A DNA stretch of 35,676 bases, taken from Patescibacteria group bacterium. Lineage in GTDB: Bacteria; Patescibacteriota; Microgenomatia; UBA1400; PJMF01. Under the pieces are notes generated by a model. The model did not search any database. It had not been told where the DNA came from and saw nothing but the letters and a program-made list of their open reading frames with translations. Shown here piece after piece: positions 1,894 to 19,092 of this stretch (position 1 is its first letter; each line of letters opens with the position of its first letter). Position numbers and translations under genes: made by a program. The DNA is taken from the NCBI GenBank assembly GCA_039934415.1, contig JBDTME010000001.1:404785-440460 (forward strand). The letters are read 5' to 3'.

Positions 1894-2832
1894 TCACTCT
1901 ACGTTTTCTAATCTCGAGACAACAACACCACGATGGAGGAAAGTACCTTCAGGTGTACACGTAATCAATTTTAGTTCCCTTCGAGAGTGTCGCTGTTCCA
2001 GAATGTACGTGTCTTCAGGATCAACTTCGTGTTTTTCCTCGACGATGTACGTGTATTTTACCCCATCATAGGTCAAGTAAATTGCATCTCCGGCTTCAAG
2101 CGTCATGATTTTACTAAAAATTGATTTCAACCGATTCGGGTTGGTCAACTCCGGTCGATAAAATTGACGAAGTACCGAGTGACCAAAGATGACTGGCGCA
2201 CCAAAATCGCCTGGATCAGCCGTTCCTGGATACTGAATCAGTGACTTATTTAGATCTGTTCCGCCCACTTTGACGCTGGTCCTCTCAATGCCTAGTTTGG
2301 GAATTTCAATAAAATACTCTTTCCCCTGCTGTTGAGCTTCTTTCTCAACTTCAGAAGGATCTCGGAACCAGTTTGCCAAATTAGAGTAATCCAGCTGCTC
2401 TCGCAAAATAATCGGTTTCGGTTTCGGCTTGATCAGTTCACCACTCGCCAACTCCGCAGCTTGAGCTCTCCCAACAGAAACCGTTTGCTCAGACGGAGAA
2501 ATGACATTTTCTTGTGGAACCGGTGCAGATAAACTAATTCGCTGTAATCCAGGTGAAGTGAAGATCGTAAAATATAAAATTGGCCACACTGCGTTTGCAA
2601 CTAAGATGCTCCCAAAAGTAATCAGTACCACCGGCAAAATGCGACGAACATGGTAGAACTTCGTTTGCAGTTTTTTTTCTTTTTTACGAAGGGTGTGAAC
2701 TTGATCAACAATCTCGTCAAACTCCTTGAGTTCGTGTTGCACATCAGCAACACTCATCCCAGATTTGATTGCCTCACGATATAAATCAAGAACAGCTTCC
2801 CGAGCAGATGTTGGCGTTGCTTGCGACTGCAT
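1894..2832 (-). CDS. Sortase family protein with N-terminal extension and TM anchor
   Basis: IEIPKLGI, IFGHS (His), LITCTP (Cys) and a downstream Arg; TM segment at about residues 65-90. Confidence 0.88.
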   Translation of the reverse strand: MQSQATPTSAREAVLDLYREAIKSGMSVADVQHELKEFDEIVDQVHTLRKKEKKLQTKFYHVRRILPVVLITFGSILVANAVWPILYFTIFTSPGLQRISLSAPVPQENVISPSEQTVSVGRAQAAELASGELIKPKPKPIILREQLDYSNLANWFRDPSEVEKEAQQQGKEYFIEIPKLGIERTSVKVGGTDLNKSLIQYPGTADPGDFGAPVIFGHSVLRQFYRPELTNPNRLKSIFSKIMTLEAGDAIYLTYDGVKYTYIVEEKHEVDPEDTYILEQRHSRRELKLITCTPEGTFLHRGVVVSRLENVE

Positions 2833-2853: not shown

Positions 2854-5145
2854 TCACTCTACTTTTTTCTTCAATGTAATTTTTTTCTTGTCATCTGGTA
2901 AGCGAGCAACGAGGAACTCAGCAATTCCAGGACTCAAATGAATGGTACTTGATTTGATCTCCGCTTTTTCAGACAAAATCTGCCTCGCCTGTTCCAAAGT
3001 CTTACCTTTAATATCATCCAACCAAGCCTCTGAGTTCGTAGGAGGAACATACTCTGAAGTCAAGGTTGCATCGAGAGTTAAACTAGCTGAACTGGTCGCG
3101 TTTTGGCTTTCCTTCGATAAAATACTGATCTTATTCTCGATCAGTGCCCCACCATCAGGCACTAACCCGGCTAATTGTTCACGAGCAATCGGCTGTAAAT
3201 CACTAGACTTATATGTGTATGCTTCGACACTCAATGTCATCGTTAACGTGAGCTTCTCAGTTTCCTCTCCCACTTTGGCACTAAACGTTTCCTTTTTCAC
3301 TTGTGACTTGCCGCTTAACACTAAATAATCTCCCGATGCTAAGCCTGACTTCATTTCTGATTCTGCTTTTTTCATCAGACTCTTTTTTAAATCTGTCTCT
3401 AATTTTTGTTGATCTTCTTTTGATACTGCTTGAATTTCCCGACTTGAACCGCCTGCAATTGCTTTATCGTTTCGTGCTGTATAGGTGTCTTTACCAAAAT
3501 TGCCAACTGAAAAATCCGTGTCTTTATCCAAATTTGACTCAGCTCCAATCTCTTTGGCGGTAACGCTAACATCCTTTTTCCCATATTGAACAGTCTGCCC
3601 GTTGTCATTTTCTTGGGTGCTGGCTGATGCAACTGTTACGTCTTGATCAGTAAAAAACAACTTAGTACCTGATTTAATCTCAGTACCTTTGGCAATGGTT
3701 TTAAGACTCGTTGTTTTATTTAAAATTGTCACTGTTCCTTTAGCGTTCTCACCAATGATCTTTGAACCGTGAGTACTAGTTTCTTGATTGTCTGTTTCTT
3801 CTTTGTTGACGATAGACACCTTTAAGACTTTCTTTTCTGCATCTGTAACTGGAATATTAGGATTGAGCGCTACTTTGGCATCAACTGAAACTGGGATGGT
3901 TTTTAGAATAATTTCGACATTCGCAACTCGCTGAATGACAACCCAACCATATACACCCGCCGCCATCACTAACAAAAACCCACCCACGACCACTCCCAAT
4001 ATCCCAATTGTTCTCGTATTTTTGCGAGGAAATAATCGCCGTGTTGGTGTTTCAGCAGAGGGATCTGACGCAATGCTTGATCTAGAAAAGACTGCTGGCA
4101 GTGCAAAAACTGGGAGTTTAAATTTGGGCAATTTGAATTTGAACGCAGCTTTTGCCGGCTGCTCCGCATACTCAGCATCAATGACTGATTCGTCAATTGC
4201 ATACTCTGGTTCTACTTCAGCTGAAGTAGGAGGTTCCATGGATTTAACGACTTTAGAAGGCATCGGAATTCCAAAAGAGCTGACTTTAGCGGATTCTGTC
4301 GGTTGATCCATCGCTGTAAAACCAAAGTCGGTATCCTCAGTGTGAACAGGCTTTACTGCTACCACGGAACTTTCTTGATGTGTATCGACAGGAGTCAATT
4401 CAGTATGTAGTGTCTCGCTACCACCAGCGATACAAGCTGCTTCGACCATGTCAGACCGAGACAAAATATCAATCGACGGCAAATGGTGAAACAACTTGGT
4501 CGTATCCCAATCGTGAGCTAAGAAAGTCTGTTTATCTTGTTCCAATTGGTCCATCGGTACTTCAAATGAGAAAAAATACATTTGAGCAGGCAGTGGTTGT
4601 TTCTCTAGTCGACTTAGTCCTTCTATCAAATCATCAACAAATTTATCACTGCGGCCCATCGTTTCTTTTTGTAACAACTGTCCATGTTCAGTCAAAAAAA
4701 GACGATACTCATTGGCACAAACCTGTAAATATAATGTCAGAGCAGCTGACGTTTTAAACTGAAAAATGAAATGAAATAACGCTTCAAGCGTGACGACAAA
4801 TCCGACTGGATGTAACACTAACTTTTGAGTAATTTTCTTTAAAACTTCTTTGTACTCAGGTTTGATATCAGCAGGTGTTACCCACTCTTGCGGTAAACTA
4901 AAAAGTACTTTTGTTACACCTTCTGCTTCTTCGTGGAACTCTTCGAGTCCTAATTCCACCGCATCACTCAAAGATATTAACTCCAACCATTCTTTCGGTG
5001 TACCAATCGACAACACTTTTGGTCGACCATTAACGACTCCCCAAATTGCCAACGTTACAAAAGAATCCTCGATCAGACAAGTAAAATACTTCTCCACGAT
5101 CTCTGACGAACTTATCTTTTGGGCCAACACGTTTGCGAATTGCAT
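2854..5145 (-). CDS. 763-aa single-pass membrane protein: cytoplasmic N-domain, acidic linker, TM, baseplate J/gp47-like C-domain
   Basis: One TM (IGILGVVVGGFLLVMAAGVYGWVVI). The C-terminal part has AKGTVTILN, FFTDQDVTV, VSVTAKEIGAESN and GGS...VSKED, resembling baseplate-J-like proteins. The N-domain only loosely resembles FtsA/PilM. Confidence 0.6.
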   Translation of the reverse strand: MQFANVLAQKISSSEIVEKYFTCLIEDSFVTLAIWGVVNGRPKVLSIGTPKEWLELISLSDAVELGLEEFHEEAEGVTKVLFSLPQEWVTPADIKPEYKEVLKKITQKLVLHPVGFVVTLEALFHFIFQFKTSAALTLYLQVCANEYRLFLTEHGQLLQKETMGRSDKFVDDLIEGLSRLEKQPLPAQMYFFSFEVPMDQLEQDKQTFLAHDWDTTKLFHHLPSIDILSRSDMVEAACIAGGSETLHTELTPVDTHQESSVVAVKPVHTEDTDFGFTAMDQPTESAKVSSFGIPMPSKVVKSMEPPTSAEVEPEYAIDESVIDAEYAEQPAKAAFKFKLPKFKLPVFALPAVFSRSSIASDPSAETPTRRLFPRKNTRTIGILGVVVGGFLLVMAAGVYGWVVIQRVANVEIILKTIPVSVDAKVALNPNIPVTDAEKKVLKVSIVNKEETDNQETSTHGSKIIGENAKGTVTILNKTTSLKTIAKGTEIKSGTKLFFTDQDVTVASASTQENDNGQTVQYGKKDVSVTAKEIGAESNLDKDTDFSVGNFGKDTYTARNDKAIAGGSSREIQAVSKEDQQKLETDLKKSLMKKAESEMKSGLASGDYLVLSGKSQVKKETFSAKVGEETEKLTLTMTLSVEAYTYKSSDLQPIAREQLAGLVPDGGALIENKISILSKESQNATSSASLTLDATLTSEYVPPTNSEAWLDDIKGKTLEQARQILSEKAEIKSSTIHLSPGIAEFLVARLPDDKKKITLKKKVE

Positions 5146-5524
5146 AGCAACAATTCCCTGTTTTTAAAAAGGGAATACTACCATTAAAACAAACTTTACT
5201 CCGGAGGGAAAGGGTGACTTGTGCGAAAGATGAATTTATTTTTTCATTCCCCCTCCCCTCTCATTATAAAAGTGTACTAGGATTGGACTAGAACTAGCCT
5301 AAAATATAGGCTAAAACTAGGCTATGAATATAGTATCTCCCATACAGCTGCAAGAAACTATTTCTGATGAGCTCAAAAATCTCTTACAAGAAAAAGTAGA
5401 CAGTTTTGAAATTTAATCATTCACAACCTGAAAAAGAATCCACAACTTCCAATCGACCTCAGTCTTAAAAGTCAAACAAGGAAATAGTAACTGATAAAAT
5501 ATACTCGTGTTGGAACCTATTTTC

Positions 5525-7390
5525 TCACACTAAATAAATTCGTCTCACTCCTGCTGATACTGCTTGTTCTTTTTGAATTTTAAGTTGACCGATCTGACCG
5601 GTGTGTTCGACGTGAGGGCCGCCGCAAAATTCTTTGGAAACCCAGTCATCGTCAACATCTTTACCTACAGTGTAGACAGAAACTTCGTCTGGATATTTTT
5701 CGATAAAAAAGGCGATCGCACCTAATTTGAGCGCGTCTTCTTTTTTCATGACTTGCTTGGTGACAGGCAAATCTTGAGCAACCCACTCGTTGATCTGATC
5801 CTCAACTTGCTTCTTTTCTTCTTCAGTCATGGCTTGTGGATGTGAGAAATCAAATCGTAGTCGTTCACCAGTAATATTCGAACCCTTTTGCTGAACGTGT
5901 GTGCCTAACACTTTTCGTAGTGCCGCATGAAGTAAGTGCGTGGCGGTGTGATACTTGGTCGTTTGCTCGGAGTGATCCTGTAAACCACCTTTGAACATAC
6001 CCACTGATGCGCTGCGTGATTGCTCAGCATGTTTAGTTTTCTCGGCATTAAAGTCAATTTCAGTCAGTTCCACATTTTTTTCTTTGGCAATTTCTTGTGT
6101 GAGTTCGAAAGGAAAACCGTACGTTTCATAGAGCTGAAAAGCAACTTGGGCATTTAACTCCCCCACTTTTTCAATCTCTCGCATGCCTTTTTCTAAAGCT
6201 CGTTGAAATTTGCTTTCTTCTTCTTCTAAGACACGGCTAATTTGCTCTACTTGCCTACTCACCTCAGGATATGGTTCGGCGTAGATACTAGAAACTGCTT
6301 TGACAATCTCAGCCACAAATGGGTTTTCAATTCCAATCATTTTGGCGTAACGAATTGACCGACGAACTAAACGGCGCGAAAAGTAACCTTGAGCTTTATT
6401 GGATGGGAAAATACCATCCGATGCTAACATGACAGCTGCCCGCATGTGATCGGAGATCACGCGAAAAGATCGAGTGTGAACTTCATCATCACCGTATGTG
6501 ACACCACTAATTTTTTCAATCACTTTCACAATTGGTTGAAACGCATCGGTTCTAAATACATCAATCTCATTATTTGCTGGCGCCAAAATCCGTTCCAACC
6601 CTCCTCCAAAGTCCACATTTGGCTTCGACAGTTTCTCAAAACCATTATCTGTCTTCACGTATTCCATAAACACACTGTTTCCAATTTCCATAAACCTTCC
6701 ACAATCACAATTGACATGACATGGTTCGTCTTTGAACTGAGAATTTTCATGGAGCTTTAACTCCACGCCAAAATCATAGAAGACTTCACTATCTGGGCCA
6801 CCTGGTTCACCAACAGGCATGTTTGAAGGTACTCCGGCACGTGACCACCAATTTTTCTTGGCGTCATAATAAAAGATACGCCCGTCTTTCATCCCATCTT
6901 TTTCGGCAAAATCTACATCTTGGGCTTCAATATTTTTTTCTTTAAATAATTGTTTCCAAATTTCGACTGACTCGGTATCTTTCGGCACATCAATCTCAGG
7001 CGCACCACGAAAGACCGTTACAAACAATCTGTTGGGATCTAATCCCATTCCATCCGTTTTATCAGTCAAAAACGTAAAAAACCAAGTGAGTTGTTCTTTT
7101 TTGAAGTAATCGCCGAGCGACCAATTCCCCAACATTTCAAAGAAAGTGGTATGACGATTGTCCCCTACTTCCTCGATATCTTGAGATCTGAAACATTTTT
7201 GGGAGTCAACAATACGAGTGCCTAATTGGTGTTTTTGCCCCAATAAATACGGCACCATTGGCTGCATACCAGAACCAGTAAATAGAGTTGTAGGATCGTT
7301 ATCAGGTACTAAGGGAGAAGACGGCACGATCGCATGCCCATTTTTTTGAAAAAAGTTTAAATATTTTTGGCGAAGTTCATTCGGTGTCAT
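5525..7390 (-). CDS. alaS: Alanine--tRNA ligase, short form (621 aa)
   Basis: DPTTLFTGSGMQP, RHTTFFEMLGNWSLGDYFK, DFGGGLERI, DHMRA; editing motifs HTATH and CGGPH; ends at GVRRI. Confidence 0.97.
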   Translation of the reverse strand: MTPNELRQKYLNFFQKNGHAIVPSSPLVPDNDPTTLFTGSGMQPMVPYLLGQKHQLGTRIVDSQKCFRSQDIEEVGDNRHTTFFEMLGNWSLGDYFKKEQLTWFFTFLTDKTDGMGLDPNRLFVTVFRGAPEIDVPKDTESVEIWKQLFKEKNIEAQDVDFAEKDGMKDGRIFYYDAKKNWWSRAGVPSNMPVGEPGGPDSEVFYDFGVELKLHENSQFKDEPCHVNCDCGRFMEIGNSVFMEYVKTDNGFEKLSKPNVDFGGGLERILAPANNEIDVFRTDAFQPIVKVIEKISGVTYGDDEVHTRSFRVISDHMRAAVMLASDGIFPSNKAQGYFSRRLVRRSIRYAKMIGIENPFVAEIVKAVSSIYAEPYPEVSRQVEQISRVLEEEESKFQRALEKGMREIEKVGELNAQVAFQLYETYGFPFELTQEIAKEKNVELTEIDFNAEKTKHAEQSRSASVGMFKGGLQDHSEQTTKYHTATHLLHAALRKVLGTHVQQKGSNITGERLRFDFSHPQAMTEEEKKQVEDQINEWVAQDLPVTKQVMKKEDALKLGAIAFFIEKYPDEVSVYTVGKDVDDDWVSKEFCGGPHVEHTGQIGQLKIQKEQAVSAGVRRIYLV

Positions 7391-13620: not shown

Positions 13621-13719
13621 GAAAATAACAATCCAAAGAATTAGAAGAAAAGTCGTCACATCAACTGCTGTCCACGAGGATCTTTGCGAGCATTGAATAA
13701 TATAAGCGAACCAATCAAT

Positions 13720-14082
13720 CTATTTGTAGTTGTCAGCTGCTGGCATAACCCACTCTTTTCCAAATTCATCGATAAGCACCCTTAAGGCCGCACAAGCTGA
13801 CTCAGGACCCCAACGAATATTAAAGCTAATATCTGCACCCTCTAAAAGGGTAGCAGCAAAACCGCGACATTTAAGCCACATTTCTTGACAAAGAAATGAG
13901 AGATCCTCAATAGAAATTATTCCCTTTTGGTAATCTTGAACTATTGCAGTGAACAAAAGACGTCCATGTTCTTCTTTTATTACATCAGCATCAACAATAG
14001 CAGTAGACAAACCCACTTTTTCTGCATACGCATGAGGCAGTTTTTTTCTTCTATTCATTATCTTTTGATACTTGTCTTCCAT
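13720..14082 (-). CDS. Hypothetical protein (120 aa)
   Basis: ATG with extended -10 TGcTATACT 7 nt upstream; no recognisable family. Confidence 0.65.
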   Translation of the reverse strand: MEDKYQKIMNRRKKLPHAYAEKVGLSTAIVDADVIKEEHGRLLFTAIVQDYQKGIISIEDLSFLCQEMWLKCRGFAATLLEGADISFNIRWGPESACAALRVLIDEFGKEWVMPAADNYK

Positions 14083-14181
14083 AATGTGGAGTATAGCAGG
14101 GGAAGTGATATCTCACACTTACCCTAGAGCAAGCCTTTTTCCCGTTTGACCTTTTTCCCCATTCTCTATACTCTAGGTTCA

Positions 14182-15666: not shown

Positions 15667-15817
15667 TTACACATACTGTTTATTCAGTCGCATTCGTAAA
15701 TACGAAACAACTCCCCGTTTTCCATCAGCTCTTCTTCGTAATCCCATTCTTGTCTAGATGAGTAAAAAAAAAGTGATTCTGTTCATATTACAATAATTTG
15801 TTATAAATAAACGTAGT

Positions 15818-15913
15818 TCTCACGGAACTCAGTGTAAACCTGAGACTGTGCCGCAACGGTGTATGTGAAATTGAGTACTAAAATTACTCAACACATGAGT
15901 CCGATCTGTGAGA
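15818..15913 (+). ncRNA. Cobalamin riboswitch aptamer
   Basis: TCTCACGG 15818-15825 pairs with CTGTGAGA 15906-15913; GGAA; P4 CTCAG-TGTAAAC-CTGAG; CTGTGCCGCAACGGTG; extension stem ATGTG..TTGAGTA / TACTCAA..CACAT; GAGTCCGAT box, with CGG/CCG pairing in place of the commoner CTG/CAG. Confidence 0.88.
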
Positions 15914-16007
15914 TAGCCCTGCCGATGGCAGGGTGTTCGACGAGCATCGGAACCTCAAGTGTCAGAATCCCGCCTAGCGGGCTTCCTTCGCGAAAACCCT
16001 TCCGAAT

Positions 16008-16031
16008 GCTCCTCTCACGAGGAGTTTTTTT
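16008..16031 (+). promoter_or_regulatory. Expression platform: SD-sequestering, terminator-like hairpin
   Basis: GCTCCTC-tcac-GAGGAGT running into the T7 tract 16025-16031, then ATG 16032; the GAGGAG SD is the 3' arm. Confidence 0.75.
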
Positions 16032-17558
16032 ATGGCAAAAGAGCAACAACGAAAGTATCGCGTCGAAGGCGAGTGGGTCACTGATGCCCAAATTCCGGAA
16101 ATTTTTAACTTGGGAAATTTGTTTCATGAATACCAAAAAACCATAGCATCCTATGGTCCTCGAGAAACAACGGAACGATTTAAGACCTTGTTGAGAAAAC
16201 AATTGATTTCTTTAATCCAAGAACTCGTCATTCAGCCGCTGACACCAAATTTTCTCTATAGTCTCGTTGAACGTGTCGACCACATCGAGGTCAATGATGA
16301 CGACTATCCTCAAAAACCAAATATTGTAAATCGAGCTAATCCTTATGAATGGTATAACCTGACCGAAGAAGCTGGAACTGAAGCCCTGTACGCAATGTCA
16401 CCATTTGCGAAACCCTTTCTTGATCGATTTCTTTTAGAGTATGAACAAATAAAATTGCTCGTCGAAGAATATCTCCCCAAAGATCCACTGTTATCCCTTC
16501 CTTTTATACAGCAGTTGAGTGAGACCACTCAACCCATCACAATCCAACTGGCTGATAGCAAAACAATTGAAGGCTTTGTGTCAAATTGGTACGCAATGGC
16601 TATGCCAGCCAGCCAAGTTCACAAAGGCGGAGGCTCTTACTTTAATATCTATCGTATCGTTGCAGTCCCAACAGAGAACGGAAACTTTGAGTACTTCCTT
16701 CAGAAACAAGGCCTTCTCCACAAACTGAATCAGAAAAGACATGCCCATGACTTACTGAATATTGACCAGTTAGAAAAAGCGACGCCTCAAACAGAACGTG
16801 AAATCATGATGAGAATTATTCAGTTAAGTCCTCATAGAAATAAACAGACTCCAGAAGAATTATTTATTGAAGTAACACAGAAAAAAATACCAAATTTAAA
16901 GACACAGATTGCAAAAGCTAGAGAAAGGCAAGAAAGTCAAACTGTAGCTATAGAGCAATCTATTGAAGCGATTCTAAAAATATTTGAACATGAGTTGTCA
17001 CAACCAGAAACCCCTGACCAATTGGTAAGACTCAAGGATTTCTTTGAGGGGATTGGAAACCCACTCTACTTTGCAAAGGATGTGCCACAAGAGGTATTAG
17101 TCGAGAAATATCACTCTGAGTTAGCATCAGGCAAAGGTCGAGATGCGTTCATTTCTTCTCTTTCGACTGCCATTCCTACTATTCTGCAACGCGTTGCTGG
17201 TTCTTTCTTCTGTGGTTCAATGTCAGCCGGCGGTTTAATCGCAAAAGCTGGAGGGGCTCATGGATTTGGGGGCATCAAAATCGATTCCTGCACAACTTGC
17301 CCGAACTGCGGATCATCTGGAATCGTGGGTCCCTTGTGCAACTGTGGCTTTGGTCGAGATGGCATGATGCATCATGTCCCCACAACAAATACTTCACATC
17401 CACAATCGAGTCACAACTCAAAGACCAGTTCGAAAAAAACAACAGGACCTCACTCTTCCGGCTTATTTACTATTTTGCCTACTTTAGACTCAGTATCGAT
17501 TAATCATATTTTTTCAACCGGAAAAGCTTCTGTAGGCGTGAACGGTTTGTTTAATTGA
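16032..17558 (+). CDS. 508-aa protein of unknown function with a C-terminal Cys cluster (putative metal-binding ribbon)
   Basis: Long ORF with a strong SD; no signal peptide or clear TM; FFCG, a Gly-rich stretch, CTTCPNCG...CNCG and a His/Ser-rich tail. Confidence 0.85.
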   Translation: MAKEQQRKYRVEGEWVTDAQIPEIFNLGNLFHEYQKTIASYGPRETTERFKTLLRKQLISLIQELVIQPLTPNFLYSLVERVDHIEVNDDDYPQKPNIVNRANPYEWYNLTEEAGTEALYAMSPFAKPFLDRFLLEYEQIKLLVEEYLPKDPLLSLPFIQQLSETTQPITIQLADSKTIEGFVSNWYAMAMPASQVHKGGGSYFNIYRIVAVPTENGNFEYFLQKQGLLHKLNQKRHAHDLLNIDQLEKATPQTEREIMMRIIQLSPHRNKQTPEELFIEVTQKKIPNLKTQIAKARERQESQTVAIEQSIEAILKIFEHELSQPETPDQLVRLKDFFEGIGNPLYFAKDVPQEVLVEKYHSELASGKGRDAFISSLSTAIPTILQRVAGSFFCGSMSAGGLIAKAGGAHGFGGIKIDSCTTCPNCGSSGIVGPLCNCGFGRDGMMHHVPTTNTSHPQSSHNSKTSSKKTTGPHSSGLFTILPTLDSVSINHIFSTGKASVGVNGLFN

Positions 17559-17620: not shown

Positions 17621-18109
17621 ATGAAGAAAGCAATTTTCACTGGATTGGCAGCGTTGCTGCTCGCCGGTTGTACCCCTACATCAACCACAAACAACGTTGT
17701 GCCAGAACCTACTTCAGCTCAAGTTGAAGAAATGGCAAAACCAACAGATGCCGCCATGATGGAAAAAGAAGACACCATGATGGAACCAATGACCGTGACA
17801 TTGGGCGAGCAAAATAAATCTGGACAAAAAGGATTAGCCACCCTTGAAGAAAGAGATGGCAAAGTCGTCGTAACAATCATGCAAACCGGTACAGCATCAA
17901 CAGTTGCTCAACCTGCACATATTCACATGGGCAGTTGTCCAACTCCAGGTGCAGTCAAGTTTCCTTTGACCGACGTCGTCAATGGAAAGTCTGTGACCAC
18001 GGTTGATACAACCATCGCAGATCTCAAGAAAATGATGCCAATTGCAATCAATGTGCATAAGTCAGCAGCAGAGTCGAAAATGTACACAAGTTGTGGTGAC
18101 ATTAAATAA
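17621..18109 (+). CDS. Lipoprotein with CHRD / Cu-Zn SOD-like domain
   Basis: Lipobox LLAGC, Met/Glu-rich linker, QPAHIHMGSC, INVH and terminal CGDI; TAAGGAGG SD. Confidence 0.7.
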   Translation: MKKAIFTGLAALLLAGCTPTSTTNNVVPEPTSAQVEEMAKPTDAAMMEKEDTMMEPMTVTLGEQNKSGQKGLATLEERDGKVVVTIMQTGTASTVAQPAHIHMGSCPTPGAVKFPLTDVVNGKSVTTVDTTIADLKKMMPIAINVHKSAAESKMYTSCGDIK

Positions 18110-18156: not shown

Positions 18157-18207
18157 GTACAAAGATTATATCTCCTTGCTTCGCGTATTTCTGTGTATAA
18201 TTGCGTC

Positions 18208-18666
18208 ATGAATATTCTCGTGACATACGCCACCAACTCAGGTTCCACCTATTTGGTTGCCAAATATATTTCAGAGAAACTCCAAGAGCACACTCATCAA
18301 GTCACCCTACTCAATATCATGGACGCTAACCCAGAAGATTTATTGAAATATGATTTAGTATTTCTTGGTTCGAATAGTTGGGATTTTGAACACAAAGAAG
18401 GTCAACCTCACCATGCCTTTATGCAATTCCTCGATGGAATAAAAGATGTCCAATTATCAGATCACAAGTATGTACTGTTCGGATGCGGTGATAAAAGCTA
18501 CCAATATTTCTGTGGGGCACTGACAGTTATCGAAGAGTTCGTCAAAGCACACGCTGGCCAGGTGATCGCAGAACCACTCAAGATAAATCAGTACTTCTTC
18601 AACGATACTGACAAAATTCATTCTCAAATTGATAGCTGGCTTTCTGAAGTCGAACAAAAGTTTTAA
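18208..18666 (+). CDS. Flavodoxin
   Basis: YATNSGST FMN loop, GSNSW, FGCGDKSYQYFCGA; ATG 18208 preferred. Confidence 0.9.
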   Translation: MNILVTYATNSGSTYLVAKYISEKLQEHTHQVTLLNIMDANPEDLLKYDLVFLGSNSWDFEHKEGQPHHAFMQFLDGIKDVQLSDHKYVLFGCGDKSYQYFCGALTVIEEFVKAHAGQVIAEPLKINQYFFNDTDKIHSQIDSWLSEVEQKF

Positions 18667-18714
18667 TTGAATCACCCCTAGATTTTCCCAACTTTTTCAG
18701 CGCATAATGTCCTT

Positions 18715-19092
18715 ATGTTTTCATATCTCTATAAAGTGTTACGCAGTTTCACGTACGCCGCACATGGCATGATTAGCATGCTTGGTGAACGCAATATGCA
18801 GGTACACATTACTGCCGCATTTGTAGTCATCATACTCGGGAACATCCTGCCTGTTACACAAACTGAATGGTACATTCTCCTGATACTGATTGGAGCAGTT
18901 TTCGCTTTAGAAATGATGAACACAGCAGTCGAAGAACTCGCAAATATCATCCGAGACGAGTTGAAGTTGAATTATAAAGCCACCCAACGCGCACGTGATG
19001 TTGCTGCCGGCGCTGTCTTCACGATGGCTATCATTGCAGCACTCATCGGATTAGCTATCTTTCTTCCTAAAATATTATTTATAATTGAGTAA
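18715..19092 (+). CDS. dgkA: Diacylglycerol / undecaprenol kinase (DgkA family)
   Basis: SFTYAAHG, ERNMQVH, EMMNTAVE, RDVAAGAV; 3 TM. Confidence 0.92.
   Translation: MFSYLYKVLRSFTYAAHGMISMLGERNMQVHITAAFVVIILGNILPVTQTEWYILLILIGAVFALEMMNTAVEELANIIRDELKLNYKATQRARDVAAGAVFTMAIIAALIGLAIFLPKILFIIE

Follow-up and report, generated by a model that had tools for sequence, protein, structure and literature searches.

What does a cobalamin-type riboswitch control when the gene behind it belongs to no recognisable family? The question is raised by a 35,676-nucleotide stretch of a Patescibacteria genome (the window hereafter; assembly GCA_039934415.1, contig JBDTME010000001.1, positions 404,785 to 440,460), in which a structured leader follows mutS and mutL and runs into an open reading frame (ORF) for a 508-aa protein. 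A preliminary description drawn from the letters alone had seen here the core features of a B12 element and a new B12-repressed function. We find that positions 15815-15953 of the window are a genuine cobalamin-clan aptamer. Together with the sequence up to 16031 it would form a riboswitch of the adenosylcobalamin (AdoCbl) type (Rfam clan CL00101), probably acting as an OFF switch, and profile comparisons suggest that the protein is a divergent branch of a lineage-restricted soluble superfamily outside described families. The RNA is an ordinary kind of element; the unusual part is the gene that it controls.

The aptamer and its conservation

The elements listed in the preliminary description are present in order downstream of mutL, which is confirmed as the upstream gene:

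15815-15953 (+): cobalamin-clan aptamer, from a sub-threshold RF01482 match and conservation
15817-15913 (+): aptamer core, P1 to P1' (RF01482, 33.4 bits; covariation of P1 and P4)
15817-15823 (+): 5' arm of P1, from the sequence
15824-15827 (+): GGAA, from the sequence
15828-15844 (+): P4 hairpin, from the sequence and covariation
15846-15859 (+): CTGTGCCGCAACGG, from the sequence
15847-15855 (+): P5 with its loop L5, GCC, from the sequence
15857-15859 with 15901-15903 (+): base of P6, CGG paired with CCG, from the sequence
about 15861-15897 (+): variable P6 extension hairpin, from the sequence
15898-15906 (+): B12-box-like AGTCCGATC, from the sequence
15908-15913 (+): 3' arm of P1, from the sequence
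15917-15933 (+): variable hairpin between P1 and P13, CCCTGCC GAT GGCAGGG, covarying where present
15936-15940 with 15947-15951 (+): P13 stem, TTCGA/TCGGA, from covariation
15941-15946 (+): L13 hexaloop CGAGCA, near-invariant in relatives

At Rfam gathering thresholds, which are 50 bits for RF01482 and 31.5 bits for RF00174, the whole window gave no match. In E-value mode the AdoCbl model RF01482 aligned over its full length to 15805-15937 with 33.4 bits (E 1.7e-4 in the window search), and when the genome (1.18 Mb, 99.8% complete) was scanned, this locus was the sole match both of RF01482 (E 1.1e-4) and of RF00174 (15.9 bits). These two models, the second named Cobalamin, form clan CL00101 together with RF01689 (AdoCbl-II). 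The covariance-model support that the preliminary description looked to is therefore partial, a match unique in the genome that stays below the gathering cut-off (33.4 against 50 bits). The leader folds better than its shuffled versions (z -5.66; none of 200 as good). GGAA, GUGUAAAC, CUGUGCCGCAACGG and AGUCCGAUC align to the RF01482 consensus with high posterior probability and are invariant or nearly so across the 30 aligned family sequences inspected. It is because of conservation, and not because of the sub-threshold score, that the RNA stands beyond chance.

Homologues of the ORF occur in three of 60 relatives, and each of the three has a cobalamin-clan match directly upstream on the same strand (38.7, 26.0 and 15.6 bits). 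Since this pairing of RNA and gene is conserved, as the preliminary description had asked of homologues, the riboswitch is no remnant of a unit whose nrd or btu gene was lost. The four leaders compared carry compensatory changes in P1, P4, the P6 extension and the post-P1 hairpin. A covariance model built from them (the window and the three relatives) finds the RNA in 108 of 140 genomes and 46 of 57 genera of the family, almost always as one copy per genome, and in 79 of 151 sampled genomes from 13 of 19 families across the order. When the RNAs of 20 relatives were scanned with Rfam, all 20 matched the cobalamin clan at E <= 0.01 and five reached a gathering score (two with RF01482, two with RF01689, one with RF00174). 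RF01482 was the best model for the window and for 16 of these relatives, whose scores of 35.1-66 bits all lie above the 33.4 of the window. The P6 extension ranges from almost nothing to more than 100 nucleotides, and members lacking it score best on RF01689.

Covariation was assessed on 62 distinct sequences: pairing holds in 91.1% of cells, and 22 of 30 pairs have changed on both sides. These counts lean towards structure because alignments A4 and A5 had been fitted to the model, and kinship among the sequences is a further caveat. None of 500 shuffles and no slid register came near this degree of pairing. Both-sided changes affect all seven pairs of P1 and four of the five of P4, while P5 and the base of P6 are uninformative because they are invariant. 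The hairpin at 15917-15933 shows double changes in seven of seven pairs and is gapped in about half of the sequences. P13 covaries as well: one of its pairs is CG in 24 sequences, UA in 19 and UG in nine, and the stem takes the forms CCGA/UCGG, UUGA/UCAA, CCAA/UUGA and GGA/UCC across relatives. Its CGAGCA hexaloop is constant in the aligned family sequences inspected, and in 20 sequences from other families, where the stem is UCC/GGA, it recurs with two exceptions. A pairing of UCCGAU with AUCGGA, proposed by RNAalifold on four sequences and by the single-sequence minimum free energy fold, was rejected as a conserved structure because relatives change the segment to UCAA, UUGA or UCCR with a local partner, forming P13. 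The cobalamin-type identity proposed in the preliminary description is borne out by this covariation, by the presence of the RNA in most of the family and by the clan matches of all 20 relatives.

Downstream of P13 the leader contains a compact candidate expression platform:

15943-15953 (+): 5' strand of the antiterminator, GAGCATCGGAA (L13 plus 3' strand), from complementarity
16000-16011 (+): 3' strand of the antiterminator, TTCCGAATGCTC, able to pair with 15943-15953, leaving one bulge
16008-16025 (+): terminator hairpin GCTCCTC / TCAC / GAGGAGT, from a terminator scan
16019-16024 (+): Shine-Dalgarno sequence GAGGAG, identical with the terminator 3' arm
16025-16031 (+): run of seven T, from the terminator scan

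Terminator and T run directly abut the ATG at 16032, and the leader does run into the Shine-Dalgarno sequence of the ORF, as had been described. The element at 16008-16031 is predicted to be an intrinsic terminator that also sequesters the ribosome-binding site. TTCCGAATGCTC overlaps the 5' arm of the terminator by GCTC, the calculated duplex energies are -15.9 kcal/mol for the antiterminator versus -10.6 kcal/mol for the terminator hairpin, and a transcript ending at 16018 folds into aptamer plus antiterminator. By a strict pattern, the element of TGCTCC...GGAG and T run recurs in 34 of 62 related leaders. The antiterminator flanks of these 34 pair better with their own partners than with permuted ones (mean -3.55 versus -1.71 kcal/mol; none of 2000 permutations reaches the former), a test inflated by the kinship of the leaders.

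A P13/L13-based expression platform is a feature of cobalamin riboswitches, and the arrangement suggests the following logic. With corrinoid bound, L5 would hold L13 (CGAGCA) in a kissing loop; with L13 withheld, TGCTC at 16007-16011 would be free and the terminator GCTCCTC/GAGGAGT could form, stopping transcription and burying the ribosome-binding site, so that the gene is OFF. Without ligand, GAGCATCGGAA would pair with TTCCGAATGCTC, the terminator would be blocked and the 508-aa protein made. This predicted terminator and sequestrator logic agrees with the repression by B12 postulated in the preliminary description. L5 GCC and L13 GAGC could pair, and both depart in a compensatory manner from the RF01482 consensus (CcC and GAGG); the family provides no covariation for the two loops, and support for the proposed kissing loop consists of this possible pairing and these departures.

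The 508-aa protein and its genomic setting

16032-17558 (+): 508-aa soluble orphan protein, branch c12 of the c0 superfamily, from the ORF and profile comparison

Neither Pfam at E <= 0.01 nor NCBIfam at E <= 1e-5 returned a family for the ORF, and the related first genes behind the riboswitch likewise gave no Pfam family above cut-off. Among 5.8 billion clusters seven sequence relatives were found, all unannotated. An AlphaFold2 model computed from nine sequences (predicted local distance difference test 63.7) is of moderate confidence for residues ~25-380, a domain of about 360 residues predicted to fold as a helical bundle with a small sheet, and of low confidence for residues 382-508, a tail that is probably disordered. 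Searched with this moderate-confidence model, Foldseek yielded no PDB match at E <= 1e-3 and only weak LOV/PAS rows, and the best hit of a wide VIA-align search (Z 6.8) corresponds to the background of helical bundles; ESM Atlas offered no usable feature match, with a structural TM <= 0.26. The sequence contains a glycine-rich motif, CG..GG..GFGG, and a four-cysteine motif, CxxC...CxC, ahead of the low-complexity tail; most relatives have CxxC where this protein has CxC. C394 is among the conserved cysteines. A crude Kyte-Doolittle scan detected no 19-residue hydrophobic segment (maximum 1.15), and 28 aligned c0/c12 proteins share no consistent one, five of them having a single borderline window of 1.61-1.67. 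Because no membrane segment or signal peptide is predicted, the protein cannot be an importer on its own. On all these points the preliminary description, which had seen an ORF outside the known B12-regulon families and without membrane segment or signal peptide, holds up.

The branch of the 508-aa protein, c12, is related to the family c0 by profile comparison (hhalign 95.6%, E 1.1e-8 over 322 columns). A homologue search with the c0 profile in clusters gave at least four relatives, and at E <= 1e-3 the profile retrieves 207 cluster representatives among 1.84 billion, which is why we regard the superfamily as lineage-restricted. Directly after the ORF, 17621-18109 (+) encodes a predicted lipoprotein of 162 aa (LLLAGC lipobox) with a weak match to the CHRD domain (20.8 bits, cut-off 24.1); in the relatives G001, G005 and G027 no counterpart of it follows the ORF.

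The gene content of the organism points to AdoCbl dependence. The only ribonucleotide reductase (RNR) found is RTPR-like (TIGR02505, positions 9-723 of 724, 239.9 bits and thus below the equivalog cut-off of 340), and neither the class I barrel PF02867 nor NrdD was found in the genome. Two adenosyltransferase domains of the CobA/CobO/BtuR type (93.4 and 85.4 bits) lie at G000:C1:291800-292360 (-) and G000:C1:443472-444065 (+), G000 being the genome of the window, in frames of 343 and 328 aa. Both frames carry an N-terminal extension of ~150 aa, and the second gene is located ~3 kb past the right end of the window. A genome-wide search found no PF02310 B12-binding domain, no PduO-type adenosyltransferase, and neither DUF6580 nor DUF4430 (the DUF6580 model was silent in control genomes and matched relatives); of the B12 importer families looked for, none was clearly detected. 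A flavodoxin gene begins ~640 bases downstream of the ORF and forms a pair with a diacylglycerol-kinase gene (18193-19092, +). In G005 and G036, too, the riboswitch unit is followed by both genes, in G001 by the kinase alone. Flavodoxin is a known reductant for CobA-type adenosyltransferases, and its adjacency here may or may not be meaningful. Elsewhere in the window, a sortase-family protein is encoded at 1894-2832 (-) and an alanyl-tRNA synthetase of the PRK01584 type, short at 621 aa, at 5525-7390 (-); both are consistent with a monoderm lineage of reduced genome size. Taken with the genome of about 1 Mb and the type IV cluster described below, they would fit a member of the Patescibacteria, with Saccharimonadia as a putative placement.

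The family shows the same association of riboswitch and reductase. In a hand tally of 140 genomes RTPR is present in 121, and the RNA tracks it: riboswitch and reductase occur together in 103 of these 121 genomes and both are missing in 14, while the RNA is seen in only five of the 19 genomes without RTPR and is missing from 18 genomes with it. This table is to be read as a pattern only, because the genomes are related and independence is overstated. In whole genera both RNA and RTPR are missing, as in g8 and g19 with four genomes each; in genus g9 three of four genomes have RTPR and no riboswitch was detected.

The gene under control varies within the family. The riboswitch locus was examined in 44 family genomes, about one per genus, and the first same-strand gene classed by profiles:

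24 of 44 genomes: c0 family, 570-740 aa
4 of 44 genomes: c12, the branch of the 508-aa protein, about 510-545 aa
16 of 44 genomes: c4/14, unrelated, about 206-271 aa

The c0/c12 superfamily is therefore the commonest partner of the riboswitch (28 of 44). A remote relationship of c4/14 to c0/c12 was considered and dismissed (hhalign probability 0.1%). In genome G073 the c0 gene is spread over three open frames (223, 157 and 194 aa), probably a broken gene or an assembly error. In 18 of the 44 genomes, 15 of them among the 28 c0/c12 cases, the first gene is followed in the same direction by a gene labelled c1; several of the remaining 26 loci stop at a contig edge. The locus of genome G106 supports no conclusion by itself. 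The c1 product has 1100-1500 aa and ends in a Peptidase_M23 domain in two of four scanned (38.0 and 64.9 bits), and it is followed by a protein of 190-365 aa and then by a PrgI-family protein (33.2 bits). Some gaps between first gene and c1 are tiny, or the two overlap by four bases. In many sister genera the first gene appears to be co-transcribed with type IV secretion-like genes. Neither c0 nor c12 itself matches a Pfam family of type IV secretion. The genome of the window keeps the corresponding cluster on another contig, in this order:

c1, 1231 aa, with Peptidase_M23 (64.9 bits)
PrgI-family protein (31.6 bits)
398-aa protein
VirB4-like ATPase (TraG P-loop 95 bits, AAA_10 43 bits)
dnaA and dnaN, following the ATPase

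Directly upstream of c1 there are genes for a YafQ/ParE-like toxin and a ribbon-helix-helix antitoxin (G000:C2:124000-143900, about 13626-14146, -). Their location at the usual site of riboswitch and first gene suggests that an insertion or replacement uncoupled the cluster from the riboswitch.

A different picture emerges from 20 loci in other families of the order. Some have DUF4430 and/or DUF6580 genes behind the riboswitch; of four such loci scanned, three (G185, G049a, G190b) continue with nrdR and a class II reductase that contains the RNR-II insertion domain. We take DUF4430 to be the B12-binding domain of animal transcobalamins. Other loci run from riboswitch to orphan gene, nrdR and reductase genes (scanned in G226, G179 and G039), and G234, G215 and G180 resemble them in their gene sizes, the only feature compared there. 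A hidden Markov model found c0-like genes at five loci (G175, G060, G198, G167, G179), and hhalign gave 97.6% and 98.3% for two groups of these order-level genes; they adjoin nrdR-RNR genes in G179 and, judged by gene size only, in G167. At G167 (G167:C18:17435-18865) and G042 (G042:C5:47752-49040) tandem riboswitches flank a DUF6580 gene, the one gene of the DUF type that these loci show, so that each of two successive genes has its own copy. The second riboswitch of G167 leads to a c0-like gene and then to genes of 151, 661 and 537 aa, by size alone the nrdR-reductase pattern. In a third family DUF6580 lies immediately upstream of the riboswitch-orphan unit. The orphan first genes of G226/G234, G215 and G056 were tried as kin of c0/c12 and show no profile similarity, and those of G039 and G180 share only the region of the C-terminal cysteine motif (62% and 33%). 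The idea that DUF6580 complements c0/c12 within the family of the window was also dropped, as it occurs in 14 of 24 sampled genomes, some of them with c0. As a side observation, tandem large-subunit-like reductase genes follow nrdR in G226 (2949-6602; 629 and 588 aa) and G179 (658 and 612 aa), and no small subunit was seen within the compared stretch at either locus.

Possible roles of the switch

Which function is being switched? We favour, tentatively and at a little short of an even chance, the reading that the 508-aa protein is a factor induced by B12 starvation that helps to obtain or process corrinoid, possibly via the secretion machine. A role in acquisition or processing is the most likely one because the only reductase found needs AdoCbl and no importer of the families searched is clearly present. 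On the strength of the RTPR-like reductase, the CobA-type enzymes and the lack of a clear importer family, we count the protein as a new addition to the B12 regulon. A role in obtaining or processing corrinoid also draws support from sister families, with their DUF6580 and nrdR-RNR neighbourhoods, and the general behaviour of B12 regulons fits it. A number of observations weigh against it. The window's own scores lie under both gathering cut-offs (33.4 against 50 bits for RF01482, 15.9 against 31.5 for RF00174), and the pair counts have the lean described above. The table of riboswitch and reductase overstates independence and contains the five genomes with RNA alone and the 18 with RTPR alone. 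A weak FecCD permease match (30.8 bits) could belong to an unrecognised B12 importer of the ATP-binding cassette type. The protein itself has no predicted membrane segment or signal peptide, Pfam, Foldseek, VIA-align and ESM Atlas recognised no corrinoid-binding fold or motif in it, and the c0 family diverges very fast (12-23% identity). An unrelated protein of ~240 aa takes the place of c0/c12 in 16 of 44 genomes, and such replacement is commoner among proteins that interact with a host than among cofactor enzymes. The solubility of the protein and the close linkage to secretion genes also favour a role in host interaction, and in the genome of the window the type IV cluster sits unlinked on another contig.

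Several of these points lead to a reading that we consider somewhat unlikely, in which B12 is a cue for a host-attachment programme: the riboswitch would read intracellular corrinoid as a proxy for being fed by the host, and the first-gene products (c0/c12, or c4/14) would assist the secretion-like machine or be its substrates, having no direct part in B12 chemistry. The genes for c1, the PrgI-family protein and further members of the cluster on the same strand after the first gene in 18 of 44 genomes agree with this, as do a first gene that evolves fast and is swapped between unrelated families and a C-terminal tail predicted to be disordered in the 508-aa protein. A relaxase-less type IV cluster is moreover essential for epibiotic growth in a cultivated Saccharibacterium, according to the available excerpts of PMC10633639 and PMC12102498. 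However, c1 does not follow the first gene here and in 26 of 44 genomes (some contigs end too early), where first gene and secretion genes are unlinked the riboswitch accompanies the former, and c0-like genes of other families adjoin DUF6580 and nrdR-RNR genes, not secretion genes; co-transcription of first gene and c1 is predicted from gene order. B12 riboswitches also repress B12-independent reductases, which would be paralleled by a B12-independent bypass providing deoxyribonucleotides by another route when RTPR stalls, for instance by salvage of host DNA or deoxynucleosides with the help of the secretion-like machine where it is linked. RTPR as the only reductase found and the riboswitch-orphan unit directly upstream of nrdR and reductase genes in other families are compatible with it, and the excerpts of PMC10633639 describe a secretion cluster without recognisable relaxase or coupling protein. 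Even so we judge a bypass to be quite unlikely: the 508-aa protein is unlike any reductase, kinase or nuclease in Pfam, NCBIfam, Foldseek and VIA-align, its predicted fold is the helical bundle with a small sheet, and a single enzymatic bypass would hardly account for the 16 of 44 genomes in which unrelated 240-aa proteins stand in its place. A bolder reading, which we consider unlikely, is that in these ultrasmall host-dependent bacteria intracellular B12 acts as the master signal by which a raid on the host, based on type IV secretion, is launched. Low AdoCbl, threatening DNA synthesis through RTPR, would open the riboswitch and drive the fast-evolving soluble protein (c0/c12, or c4/14) together with the secretion machine; secreted or associated with the machine, this protein would extract corrinoid, or else deoxynucleotide precursors, from the host cell.

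Two further explanations concern the RNA. A derived aptamer might sense a non-cobalamin ligand or a corrinoid other than AdoCbl, as sub-gathering scores in the window and 15 of 20 relatives could indicate, along with a core that departs from the RF01482 consensus (L5 GCC, L13 CGAGCA and the box AGUCCGAUC) and a highly variable P6 extension whose loss shifts the best match to RF01689. This seems very unlikely to us, as all 20 relatives match the cobalamin clan, five of them at gathering, the RNA tracks an AdoCbl-dependent reductase, and the same RNA precedes a DUF4430 gene and nrdJ in sister families. It is hardly credible that the leader has decayed to a relic that regulates nothing in this genome. 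The leader's 33.4 bits fall below all 20 more distant relatives scanned and the riboswitch unit is detached from the secretion cluster, but every helix is preserved, nothing is missing from the L13 loop or the terminator/Shine-Dalgarno element, and in the closest relatives the arrangement persists, with P1, P4 and P6 showing compensatory changes. The preliminary interpretation as a whole is partly supported: the riboswitch, the lack of a described protein family, the conserved pairing and the predicted repression stand, while the roles it had suggested are candidates.

Across much of an order of host-dependent bacteria with genomes of ~1 Mb, a cobalamin riboswitch is conserved, one per genome, and reserved for orphan proteins. 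If our favoured reading is right, the 508-aa protein is a candidate for the missing step of B12 acquisition or processing in organisms whose only ribonucleotide reductase needs AdoCbl. A link to the secretion-like genes would provide a regulatory handle and a testable signal, B12, for a machine of obscure function, and the master-signal reading would imply a new class of cofactor-piracy effector under direct riboswitch control. The leader could also serve as a natural ligand-controlled expression element in a group short of inducible genetic tools, a need stated in the accessible part of PMC11665869.

Comparison with known systems

In the order of its elements the RNA resembles the AdoCbl riboswitch RF01482, with P1, GGAA, P4 with a GUGNAAA-type loop, a short P5, a variable P6, the AGUC box and P13. 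It differs in L5 (GCC) and L13 (CGAGCA), for which the model consensus is CcC and UCGAGGc, departures that may form a compensatory pair; it has an extra hairpin between P1 and P13, and its L13 loop nucleotides themselves form the antiterminator strand. Classical B12 regulons comprise btuB/btuFCD, ECF-type B12 uptake, cob/cbi and the isozymes metE, nrdAB and nrdDG. The locus is similar to them in being a single riboswitch-controlled unit in a genome that needs AdoCbl, and the riboswitch of sister families precedes DUF4430/DUF6580 genes and nrdR-nrdJ. In contrast to these regulons, the target here is a soluble orphan without the signature of a transporter, a biosynthetic enzyme or an isozyme.

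A search of the open full-text literature, leaving subscription journals and supplements outside its scope, found no paper that links a natural cobalamin riboswitch to Patescibacteria or to type IV secretion. Neither the text of PMC10633639 nor that of PMC12102498 mentions a riboswitch, and the former does not mention cobalamin. Other papers, as far as their excerpts go, treat thiamine pyrophosphate riboswitches in another organism (PMC10409787), synthetic riboswitches as tools (PMC11665869, PMC13622651) and the absence of flavin mononucleotide riboswitches (PMC4508563). The RNA class is known; its target and its place at the head of a type IV secretion-like operon are undescribed in the literature searched. 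The cluster itself has published counterparts: the type IV system of Patescibacteria is chromosomal, dnaA-proximal and relaxase-less in the part of PMC12102498 at hand, and PMC10633639, in its available sections, describes a cluster without relaxase that a cultivated Saccharibacterium requires in order to grow epibiotically. Compared with these accounts, ours shares the PrgI/VirB3-like protein, the VirB4-like ATPase, the large M23 peptidase protein and the position adjoining dnaA, and is unlike them in that the cluster begins with a cobalamin riboswitch and an orphan first gene in 18 of 44 family genomes.

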